Assembly (NCBI RefSeq): GCF_036507355.1
Contig: NZ_AP027877.1
Origin: Escherichia coli
GTDB lineage: Bacteria; Pseudomonadota; Gammaproteobacteria; Enterobacterales; Enterobacteriaceae
DNA: 64,000 nucleotides
Strand: one strand, 5' to 3'
In this document: positions 1-3,000 of the stretch, in pieces
Numbering within the stretch: position 1 is the first letter of the stretch
How the letters are laid out: every line of letters begins with the position of its first letter
Position numbers: made by a program

Positions 1-3000
1 GCGTGACAACCAGCAGGCAGCAAGCCTTGCCACACGTTATTTAATTGAGCGCGGCCATCGTTACATTGCCTATCTCGGTGGCAGAGAAAGCGATCTTATC
101 CGTCAGCAGCGACTGGTTGGTTTTCGCCAGACCCTGGCAAAATTTGGCATTGCCTGCCGTGACGAGTTCACGCCAGCCTGTGACGATGACACCTGGGCCG
201 CCAGCATGGCAACGCGCCAGTTGCTGGAAAATAACAACGCCATTACCGCCCTGCTCTGCCATTCGCCCGACGCTATGATTGGCGGTATCAACGGCATACA
301 TCAGGTGGGGCGCACCGTTGGGAAAGACGTCTTTCTGACCCAGCAGGTAGCATTAATTGGTTTTGAAGATATGTTGCATATCAACCTGACCTCTCCTGTT
401 TTCACCTATGTATCTTCCGCCAGTGAAGAAACCGGACGCCAGGCAGCGACCCTGATGATTCGCAAATTAAAAGACCAGGAATTGCAAACCCAAAGAATTG
501 CGCTTTCCGGGGAACTGGTGGTGCGGGAATCGGCGTAATACACATGCCGAATGAGATGTACGTCGACATCGTCATCCGGCAATAAGGTGTAAACCAACTC
601 AATAACTACTTTTATTTGATATCTTTCACGCGCATACCGTTGAGCTGTTCATCCGTGATGGCGTTACCCGCTTTGAAGTAATCAACCACGGCGTGATAAA
701 CGTAATAACCGCCCGTTGTGTTGCGCGCTTTCCCCTCGATAAATGCGGTAAAGCCATCACCGCCATCAGCAAGGAAACTCTGAGTAGCAATATGGTAAAC
801 CGTCGCATCTTCAATCGGTTTGCCATTTAGAGTCAACGTGATTACGCGCTGACCAACCGGCTTACTGCTGTCGTACTTCATTTCCAGGCCTTTCGATACC
901 TGTAAAACGCCATTACTTAAACTTGCGCCGTGTTCCATCAAACTGCGTAATTGTTTCCCCGAGAGATCCATCGTCACCAGTTCGTTGGGGAACGGGAAGG
1001 TACTGATGACGCCGCCCATCGTAATCGCCCCTGCGGGGATCTCATTGCTAATACCGCCAGAGTTGGTTAACGCCAATTGGGTATTTTTACCCGCCGCTAC
1101 CAATAAAACCGTTAGATGGTATGTTCATTAACGGGCGGAAATAGCAACAAAGCCAAAATACTCTCTTTAGCAACCAGCAGAGAATTTATCTACTGGCTAC
1201 ATAAACAGGCAGAATTTACTCACAGCGCCCCGCTTTCCGCAGGGCGCGTTACGCAAATACTGCTTTCTCTGGCCCAGGATTACAACAACTGCGCCAGCCG
1301 ATTAATATCCGACTGAATCGCCCCGGCCGTCACGTCGCGCCCTGCGCCAGGTCCGCGGATCACCAGCGGGTTGTCGCGATACCAACGGCTTTCGATGGCA
1401 AAGACGTTATCGCACGGCAGCAGTGATGCCAGCGGATGGTCTTCACGCACCGCTTCCACGCCCACACGCGCTTTGCCGTTGGCATCGAAACGCGCCACAT
1501 AGCGCAGCACCAGCCCCATTTCGCGGGCCGCTTCCAGCCGTTGCACCATCTGCTCGTTAAGTTCATCGCCATTTTCAAAGAAATGGTCGATGCTGCCGCC
1601 TTCACAATGGGCTGGCACCAGTGATTCCACACGTACCTGATCTGGTTCGATGTCGTAACCGGCTTCACGCGCCAGAATCACCAGCTTGCGCATTACGTCT
1701 TTGCCGGAGAGGTCGTCACGCGGATCAGGCTCGGTTAAGCCCTGCTGCCACGCCTGATCCACCAGCTCGGTAAACGGCACGCTACCGTCGAATTGCAGGA
1801 ACAGCCAGGAGAGCGTGCCGGAGAAGATCCCACTGATCGACAAAATAGTATCGCCGCTGTCGATCAGATCGCGCACGGTGTGGTTGATCGGCAAGCCCGC
1901 ACCGACGGTGGCGTTGTACAGCCAGTGACGCCCGGTTTTTTCGAAGGCGTCGTGGATCTGGCGATATTTATTGCTGTCGCTTGCTCCCGCCAGTTTGTTG
2001 GCACTGATGACGTGGAAACCGTGGCTGGCGAAATCAAGATACTGGTCAGCCAGCTGCTGGCTGGCGGTAACGTCCAGCACCAATAAATCATCATACGGAT
2101 GGGCGCGCATCCACAGGAACAACGACTCTTCATCCTGCTCGACCGCTTCATCGTTGAAGAAGGCTAACGCGCGGCTGGCGTCCAGCCCGTCATAACTCAA
2201 CAGGCTGCGGCGGCTGTCCACCACACCTGCCAGCACAAATTCAAATCCGGTACGCGCCGAAAGCGTGCTCTGCTCACGAGCGAACAGTTCCAGCCAGCGG
2301 GAACCGATATTGCCTTTGCCGAACAATACCAGGCCGATGCGTTTTTCTGCGCGGAAGACGGACTGATGCAGCCCCTGAATCAGGCTTTCGGTTGGTCCGG
2401 TGCGCAGTACTGCCACCAGGCTGATGCCGTCATCCGACTGCCAGGTAAACTCGACAGGCTGGCCTTTCAGTTGCTGCCAGAAGCGGTGGCAATGCAGCGG
2501 GTTACGGGTGACGCCCGCCCCGACCATCGCCACCAGCGCCAGCCCCTGACGCAGGCGCAGTTCGCCAGGTAATCCAACTTCGTCGAGGATTTTCAGCGCA
2601 CTGTCAGCCACTTCTGAGGTGTAGCAAAATTGCAGCAACTGGCGATCGTTATGTACGCCAACCGCCAACGGACGCACCTGCGCGCGTTTCAGGATTTGGT
2701 CGATCTCTTTATGCGCCAGTTTGAAATCCTGACTGGTAGGCACCTGAAACTCAATCAAACAGACATCATCGTGGCTAGTGACAATACGCGCGCCTGTACC
2801 AGAGGCCAGCACGCGTTCAATGCGCGTGGAGCCTTGATCCGGCGTGTAGCTACAGCGCAGTTGCAGGTCGATTTCGCTGCCAGAAACCGGCTGTAAAGTA
2901 CGGGCGTGAAGAACGGGAGCCGCCAGACGCGCCAGTTCGCTGGCTTCATCAAGACGCAGCAATGGCAGCAGGCAGGCATCTTTCACTTTGCGCGGGTCGG

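Follow-up and report, generated by a model that had tools for sequence, protein, structure and literature searches.

What separates metL from metF in this Escherichia coli strain, and has metF been lost from it? In E. coli K-12 MG1655 the two genes lie 348 bp apart, and the window, by which we mean the whole stretch of 64,000 nucleotides that was analysed, does not resemble K-12 at this locus, as the original prediction had rightly remarked. That prediction, made from the sequence alone, held that a 5'-nucleotidase C-terminal domain fragment and the 3' part of a LacI-family regulator had replaced metF, and that an insertion or rearrangement in the strain had created the junction with metL and had possibly also truncated the nucleotidase. 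The ORF list and Pfam searches showed that the two gene fragments beside metL are real. Their origin appears to be a different one. With a probability of roughly 0.93, window 1-1279 is the metL-proximal end of an Escherichia accessory islet that has been scarred by a single internal deletion of 2,109 bp, and the gene stubs left by it are dead. The islet of E. coli LHM10-1 (NZ_CP037903.1, locus L001) was used as the intact reference, and the features of the window at this locus are as follows.

1-538, plus strand: LacI-family (MalI subfamily) regulator, 3' 178 codons and stop; the whole gene is intact and encodes 338 aa
539-611: intergenic stretch on which the regulator gene and the nucleotidase remnant converge, colinear with L001 9539-9611
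612-1107, minus strand: UshA-like metallophosphatase/5'-nucleotidase pseudogene remnant, codons 355-517 and stop, colinear with L001 9612-10107
1105-1107: deletion junction with a 3-nt AAA microhomology, from blastn against L001 and register alignments
1108-1316, plus strand: 'cytoplasmic protein' pseudogene remnant, codons 308-376 and stop, from tblastn and translation comparison
1225-1247: GC-rich hairpin GCGCCCCGC-TTTCC-GCAGGGCGC, 32 nt downstream of the metL stop
1280-3712, minus strand: metL, 810 aa, intact, a divergent allele and the right-hand border of the variable islet, from the ORF list and the annotation of homologues

The ORF list places metB and metJ to the right of metL. Elsewhere the window consists of ordinary E. 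coli core sequence with about 98.6-99% identity and few IS elements; this composition speaks against Shigella-like genome decay as the context of the remnants, which was considered and rejected. A search of the whole window with Rfam at gathering thresholds returned nothing in 1-1279.

The fate of metF was resolved by following the sequence beyond the left edge of the window. An exact-sequence look-up of the MetL protein of the window led to contigs that reach leftward, one of which (from GCA_047852605.1, locus L005) matches window 1-12000 with 100% identity. This extension, which the original prediction had recommended, yielded a complete regulator gene, a PTS EIICB gene, metF, katG, yijE and yijF, the last three beyond metF and in K-12 order. 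Given relative to the window, the genes nearest to its edge are the following.

-478 to 538: regulator, 338 aa, complete
-1891 to -566: PTS EIICB, 441 aa
-3280 to -2390: metF, 296 aa, intact

Both metF and its 146-bp upstream region are thus intact, about 2.4 kb to the left of the window. The gene has been displaced by a 3.5-kb islet and not replaced, contrary to what had been supposed.

The regulator had been taken for a remnant that runs off the window edge. It does run off the edge, since the gene begins 478 nt to the left of the window, but in the genome it is no remnant: the identical contig carries a complete gene at L005 13175-14191. Window 2-538 on the plus strand matches Peripla_BP_3 (E=1.5e-23) and Peripla_BP_1 (E=4.8e-20) in Pfam, and the LacI-type HTH domain (PF00356) is present in L005, outside the window. 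The protein scores 325.2 bits with the NCBIfam MalI subfamily model NF007449, for which the cut-off is 310, and has 94% aa identity to its orthologue in E. coli LHM10-1. The neighbouring PTS EIICB scores best with the glucose-specific model, below the cut-off of that model (561.7 versus 591.8). In the lineage of the window it has 441 aa instead of 499 aa, owing to an in-frame deletion of 58 aa (174 bp) between two '...AMY' repeats, which removes a segment containing GITEPVE. The shortened transporter is probably dead as well, because this segment, which forms part of the sugar-binding core in glucose-family EIIC proteins, has been deleted. The pair resembles the malI-malX module of K-12 in that a LacI-family regulator, here one that reaches the MalI subfamily cut-off, stands beside an EIICB of the glucose/maltose family. 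Unlike malI-malX, the islet pair lies at a different locus, lacks malY and has its genes co-oriented, and the EIICB of the window lineage bears the 58-aa deletion.

The nucleotidase fragment is truncated, as had been proposed, and the extent of the truncation can be read from an intact orthologue. The ORF at 612-1103 on the minus strand encodes 163 aa from a TTG start, with two stop codons 8-9 codons upstream. It matches Pfam 5_nucleotid_C (PF02872) alone (E=1.4e-33, profile positions 36-156 of 158), and no match to Metallophos (PF00149) was found in it. The TTG is in fact an internal Leu codon, corresponding to residue 355 of a full-length protein of 517 aa. In tblastn searches, residues 355-517 of the nucleotidase map to window 1103-615 with 95% aa identity to the E. 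coli orthologue, and at the nucleotide level the remnant is 91.5-95% identical to L001 9612-10107, with colinearity to the 517-aa gene maintained up to the breakpoint. The full-length orthologue carries Metallophos at residues 24-252 and 5_nucleotid_C at residues 334-477; the remnant starts at residue 355 and not 334, so that even the C-terminal domain is incomplete, its first ~21 residues being gone. The deleted N-terminus, MKIKILAAGIALTLPFWACA, is hydrophobic and, judged by inspection only, signal-peptide-like. Of the two-domain UshA type, the remnant therefore keeps the C-domain homology and has neither the metallophosphatase domain nor a complete C-domain with an export signal. The intact islet orthologue has the same Metallophos plus 5_nucleotid_C architecture as K-12 UshA, the periplasmic UDP-sugar hydrolase/5'-nucleotidase. 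It is nevertheless a paralogue and not UshA itself, with 151.8 bits against the NCBIfam UshA equivalog cut-off of 600, and the window keeps only the last 163 residues of it.

A third piece had been overlooked. The 172-bp 'spacer' between the nucleotidase remnant and metL (1108-1279) is the coding remnant of another gene, which continues for 37 nt more inside metL. When intact, this gene encodes a protein of 376 aa that is conserved in enterobacteria and annotated as 'hypothetical' or 'cytoplasmic protein'. It is convergent with metL, which its 3' end overlaps by 37 nt, and the intact version with this overlap is annotated in L001, L002 and L019. Residues 308-376 map to window 1107-1313 with 84% aa identity (tblastn). 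Members of the family are ~375-390 aa long and have no Pfam domain; they share an invariant N-terminal Cys-rich region (C10, C15, C40, C43, C74, C77, C100), of which nothing is left in the window, where residues 308-376 are all that is retained. A match of the 'cytoplasmic protein' to an IS1/IS1595 Zn-domain was weak and sub-threshold. An AlphaFold2 model of the intact 376-aa protein, built from a 26-sequence alignment, reached a mean pLDDT of 42.6 and a pTM of 0.36, which is too poor for a fold search.

Comparison with the intact islet shows how the two remnants came to lie side by side. In blastn, window 1-1107 corresponds to L001 9001-10107 and window 1105-1498 to L001 12217-12610, and register alignments showed that the two blocks overlap by 3 nt, AAA. 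What the window lacks relative to the intact islet is L001 10108-12216, a stretch of 2,109 bp comprising codons 1-354 of the nucleotidase gene, codons 1-307 of the 'cytoplasmic protein' gene and the divergent promoter region of 132 bp between them. The searches turned up no copy of exactly this haplotype without the deletion; the breakpoints were set against alleles that are 88-95% identical and are accurate to within +/- a few bases. We followed the earlier suggestion to search for the missing nucleotidase N-terminus, and tblastn detected neither nucleotidase residues 1-354 nor the lost N-terminal part of the 'cytoplasmic protein', either across the 64 kb of the window or over the adjoining 8.7 kb on the left. 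With both lost N-terminal halves absent from this stretch, a local rearrangement or inversion was rejected. An IS- or transposon-mediated deletion or rearrangement was also rejected: at the junction there is no IS element, inverted repeat or transposase, the islet sequences are joined directly with AAA as the only microhomology, and the ORF list contains no transposase ORF in 1-1400.

The sequences show directly how the locus is built, where the breakpoints and metF lie, and that the junction recurs, and the mechanism that we propose on this basis is simple. The intact long form reads, from left to right, metF (leftward), PTS EIICB and the MalI-like regulator (both rightward), the periplasmic UshA-like 5'-nucleotidase (leftward), the 'cytoplasmic protein' (rightward) and metL (leftward). 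A single illegitimate-recombination event at the 3-nt microhomology, without the help of an IS element, would have deleted the 2,109 bp. The same deletion would have stripped the 5' parts from both divergent genes together with the promoter region that they shared, and would have left two promoterless, start-less 3' stubs back to back. Both the nucleotidase and the 'cytoplasmic protein' stub would then be dead pseudogenes.

A junction of this kind might in principle be produced by faulty assembly or by the way in which the window was cut. One feature, the regulator, really is cut by the window edge, and nothing else speaks for an artefact. The identical 46-nt junction (window 1085-1130) was present in seven retrieved loci (L005, L006, L007, L009, L010, L011 and L012), which were drawn from NCBI, Logan and ENA with metagenome assemblies included; L005 and L010 being one and the same NCBI contig, the loci come from at least six separate samples. 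The flanks of one locus are 2-4% diverged from the window lineage. An artefact is accordingly so improbable that it can be set aside, and the internal deletion is taken as a real feature of the islet.

The locus with diverged flanks, L009 (SRR8068079), also orders the events. It has the same junction with a PTS gene that is intact at 499 aa, indicating that the nucleotidase deletion came first and that the PTS deletion followed later in the sub-lineage of the window. The islet of L009 is 99.3-100% identical to that of the window lineage, with zero differences over window 829-1603, whereas identity falls to 96-97.7% in the flanking katG, metF, metL (from 1604 onwards) and metB. Against complete E. 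coli genomes, the metBL region of L009 reaches no more than 96.6% identity. The metL allele of the window has 95.4-96.4% identity to its K-12 counterpart, whereas the neighbouring metB has 99.8% identity to that of a K-12-like strain. Read most simply, these comparisons suggest that homologous recombination carried the islet, with the deletion already in it and with part of metL attached, between divergent Escherichia backgrounds.

Whether the islet itself is peculiar to this strain was assessed among other genomes. At least four forms of the metL-metF spacer exist in E. coli.

Empty: K-12, OkiPb01695
Nucleotidase and hypothetical: TUM1886, ST131
Nucleotidase, hypothetical, two more nucleotidases and a Tsx-like channel: HM670, corresponding to GR31
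PTS, MalI-like, nucleotidase and hypothetical: LHM10-1

The borders are identical in all forms and consist of the metL stop codon on one side and ~146 bp upstream of metF on the other. Within the K-12 gap, the 146-147 bp beside metF are common to all forms; the 201 bp beside metL are specific to the K-12 type and unrelated to the islet. The window belongs to this variable region, as it holds extra DNA within the same borders and an UshA-like ORF. Comparison of the 201-bp K-12 spacer with every islet form gave chance-level matches only, and the polarity of the K-12 state, deletion or insertion, is consequently unreadable from any scar.

That the spacer is variable was already known. GR31 is a variable region between metL and metF in the APEC strain BEN2908 and in other ExPEC strains (UTI89, RS218) (PMC12928451). 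GR31, represented here by HM670, occupies the same metL-metF hot spot and carries UshA-like nucleotidase ORFs; it differs in its size of about 7.8 kb, in having three nucleotidase paralogues and a Tsx-like channel, and in lacking the PTS/MalI module, whereas the window lineage has one truncated nucleotidase and the PTS/MalI module. The LHM10-1 long form agrees with the window lineage in position, borders, gene order and orientation, and is 88-95% identical to it at the nucleotide level; relative to LHM10-1, the window lineage lacks the 2,109 bp and a further 174 bp from the PTS gene, outside the window. Of 5,426 complete E. coli genomes, 1,843 carry the 3' part of the nucleotidase gene, and only 8 carry the MalI-like gene, which marks the long form, with about 90.8% identity. 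The deleted configuration of the window occurred in none of these 5,426 genomes. Outside E. coli, a Citrobacter locus (CP056451.1) carries a 518-aa nucleotidase gene and a homologue of the hypothetical gene encoding 391 aa, in the same divergent arrangement and adjoining metL, with metF 1.6 kb further on. Because the pair is syntenic beside metL in Citrobacter, the K-12 arrangement should not be assumed to be ancestral. A member of the family labelled E. albertii has the same divergent pair elsewhere, beside kdsA, at a locus that also holds a Tsx-like gene and nucleotidase paralogues, three of them complete and one cut by the end of the locus.

These distributions bear on the proposal that an insertion or rearrangement confined to this strain brought foreign DNA to the metL-metF junction and truncated the nucleotidase in the same event. 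The 3.5 kb at the locus are indeed absent from K-12, the islet allele of the window is only 88-91% identical to the eight long-form E. coli genomes, and most of metL is unusually divergent; taken together, these features make an import by recombination plausible. The two halves of the proposal fail on other evidence. An insertion confined to the strain is not compatible with a nucleotidase 3' part that recurs in about a third of the complete genomes, with the known GR31 region, or with the presence of the gene pair beside metL in Citrobacter, and the islet borders are common to all forms. As for the truncation, the nucleotidase remnant does not abut metL but is separated from it by 172 bp of the 'cytoplasmic protein' gene, and the metL-proximal junction, including the 37-nt overlap, does not differ from that of intact islets; the point of truncation is an internal deletion that joins two islet genes. 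We consider such a combined event very unlikely, and the truncation is better explained by the later loss of 2,109 bp from within a resident islet.

A remaining question is whether the open nucleotidase ORF might be a gene in its own right. The 163-aa ORF (or a 135-aa version, since gene callers do call an ORF of this length by choosing an internal ATG instead of the TTG) could be a genuine stand-alone C-domain-only nucleotidase-like protein, expressed for instance by read-through from metBL. It is still open, lies on the metL strand 176 nt downstream of metL and shows a low dN/dS, and a consensus scan of 1-1500 detected no canonical terminator, hence none between metL and the ORF. The same scan of 1-1500 detected no sigma-70-like promoter, and reading of the sequence revealed no Shine-Dalgarno motif before the TTG. 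The segment 1104-1290 on the minus strand folds with an MFE of -72.3 kcal/mol (z = -5.7), and it includes the strong hairpin after metL at 1225-1247, which has no U-tract. This hairpin, which lies between the convergent genes, may act as a terminator or pause element, and would probably limit read-through from metBL.

Constraint on the ORF was compared with that on intact genes. The dN/dS between the remnant and intact orthologues is 0.06-0.10, against 0.07-0.11 for intact genes among themselves in comparably distant pairs. The value for the remnant is uninformative on constraint after the deletion, because almost all of the divergence predates the deletion. It fits a deletion that would be young relative to the divergence of the alleles, and leaves formal room for retained constraint.

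A conserved family of short, C-domain-only proteins would have told against truncation altogether. When the 163-aa ORF was searched against the protein database, the hits were fragments of 90-279 aa that share no start, many of them on short contigs, and this heterogeneity in length argues against such a family. A look-up of the exact sequence of this ORF came back empty. The closest cluster, 205 aa long and 96% identical, corresponds to the downstream half of a nucleotidase gene that, in a strain with the short islet, has been broken into pieces of 308 + 205 aa, a second and independent inactivation of this gene. Together with the colinearity of the remnant at the nucleotide level with the 3' third of a two-domain gene up to the deletion breakpoint, the incomplete C-domain (profile positions 36-156 of 158) and the loss of the signal-peptide-like N-terminus, on which a periplasmic enzyme would depend, these findings make a stand-alone protein highly improbable. 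It is an equally long shot that the ORF would be co-transcribed with metBL under MetJ control, and that a cytoplasmic, C-domain-only (nucleotide-binding) fragment would be made and retained; were this so, the retained fragment would account for an ORF that is still open in two diverged backgrounds. The reading as an inactive stub left by the internal deletion is preferred.

The finding is an ordinary one, with nothing new in kind, and it matters mainly for annotation. PGAP-type pipelines should annotate two pseudogenes at this locus (the nucleotidase and the 'cytoplasmic protein') and not a short 5'-nucleotidase, and loss of metF should not be inferred, as methionine biosynthesis is intact; otherwise the consequences are small. 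For the species, the metL-metF spacer is a multi-allelic hot spot, in which the K-12 state is not obviously the ancestral one. The decayed haplotype is nearly identical across backgrounds that are 2-4% apart in their flanking core genes, and may serve as an example of how accessory DNA spreads by recombination.

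The islet of accessory genes between metL and metF could be followed leftwards on the contig from GCA_047852605.1 (L005), which is 100% identical to the window over 1-12000. The PTS EIICB gene of the islet (L005 14279-15604, window-relative -1891 to -566) carries an in-frame deletion of 58 aa, which removes the GITEPVE segment and is flanked by two short direct repeats. In a sister lineage (L009, SRR8068079, and L016), which has the same 2,109-bp nucleotidase deletion as the window, the PTS EIICB gene still encodes 499 aa. A further E. coli lineage, whose islet is of the short form (nucleotidase and 'cytoplasmic protein'), has the same nucleotidase gene broken into ORFs of 308 aa and 205 aa (L003 7065-8618), and the cluster of the 205-aa product holds 306 member sequences. 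The split in L003 is an independent inactivation of the nucleotidase gene.

The 'cytoplasmic protein' of the islet (376-391 aa) was located at three loci:

L001 (E. coli LHM10-1, long islet) 11298-12428, 'cytoplasmic protein'
L022 7001-8176, 'cytoplasmic protein'
L023 7001-8131, 'cytoplasmic protein'

The protein is conserved in Escherichia, Citrobacter, Klebsiella, Enterobacter and Kluyvera, with many invariant Cys and Trp residues. It has no Pfam domain, and its sole match is a sub-threshold one to an IS1/IS1595 Zn-finger. The UshA-like nucleotidase gene is divergent from its gene at every locus inspected. The 'cytoplasmic protein' could be a regulator of the nucleotidase gene or a domesticated transposase, and its AF2 model was too poor to separate the two.

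Elsewhere in the window, yiiX (5653-6264) has a premature stop at codon 77 (5881-5883), which is Trp in other E. coli; its reading frame is otherwise intact, and gene callers left it uncalled in the identical contig. The fieF-cpxP interval contains roughly 3 kb (29364-32603) unlike other E. coli; in other strains the site is occupied by the remnant of another P2-like prophage (ogrK, late control D). The ORFs of this segment, and REP/BIME-type repeats elsewhere in the window, are:

29423-30424, putative IS30-family transposase (333-aa ORF, likeness judged by eye)
within 29364-32603, putative phage repressor (97-aa ORF, by resemblance)
31593-32603, putative P2-type tyrosine integrase (336-aa ORF, by resemblance)
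5495-5630, 35523-35600 and 44445-44607, repeats of the REP/BIME type (hits to naRNA4 and ES036 of Rfam)

The repeats are ordinary and account for the many multi-copy BLAST matches per genome.

The metL allele (1280-3605) is divergent and mosaic. Its identity to K-12 metL is approximately 96.5%, metB just past it matches that of a K-12-like strain at 99.8% identity, and the final 324 bp of metL are the same as in L009, a strain elsewhere 2-4% divergent. These sequence identities suggest recombination tracts ending inside metL.
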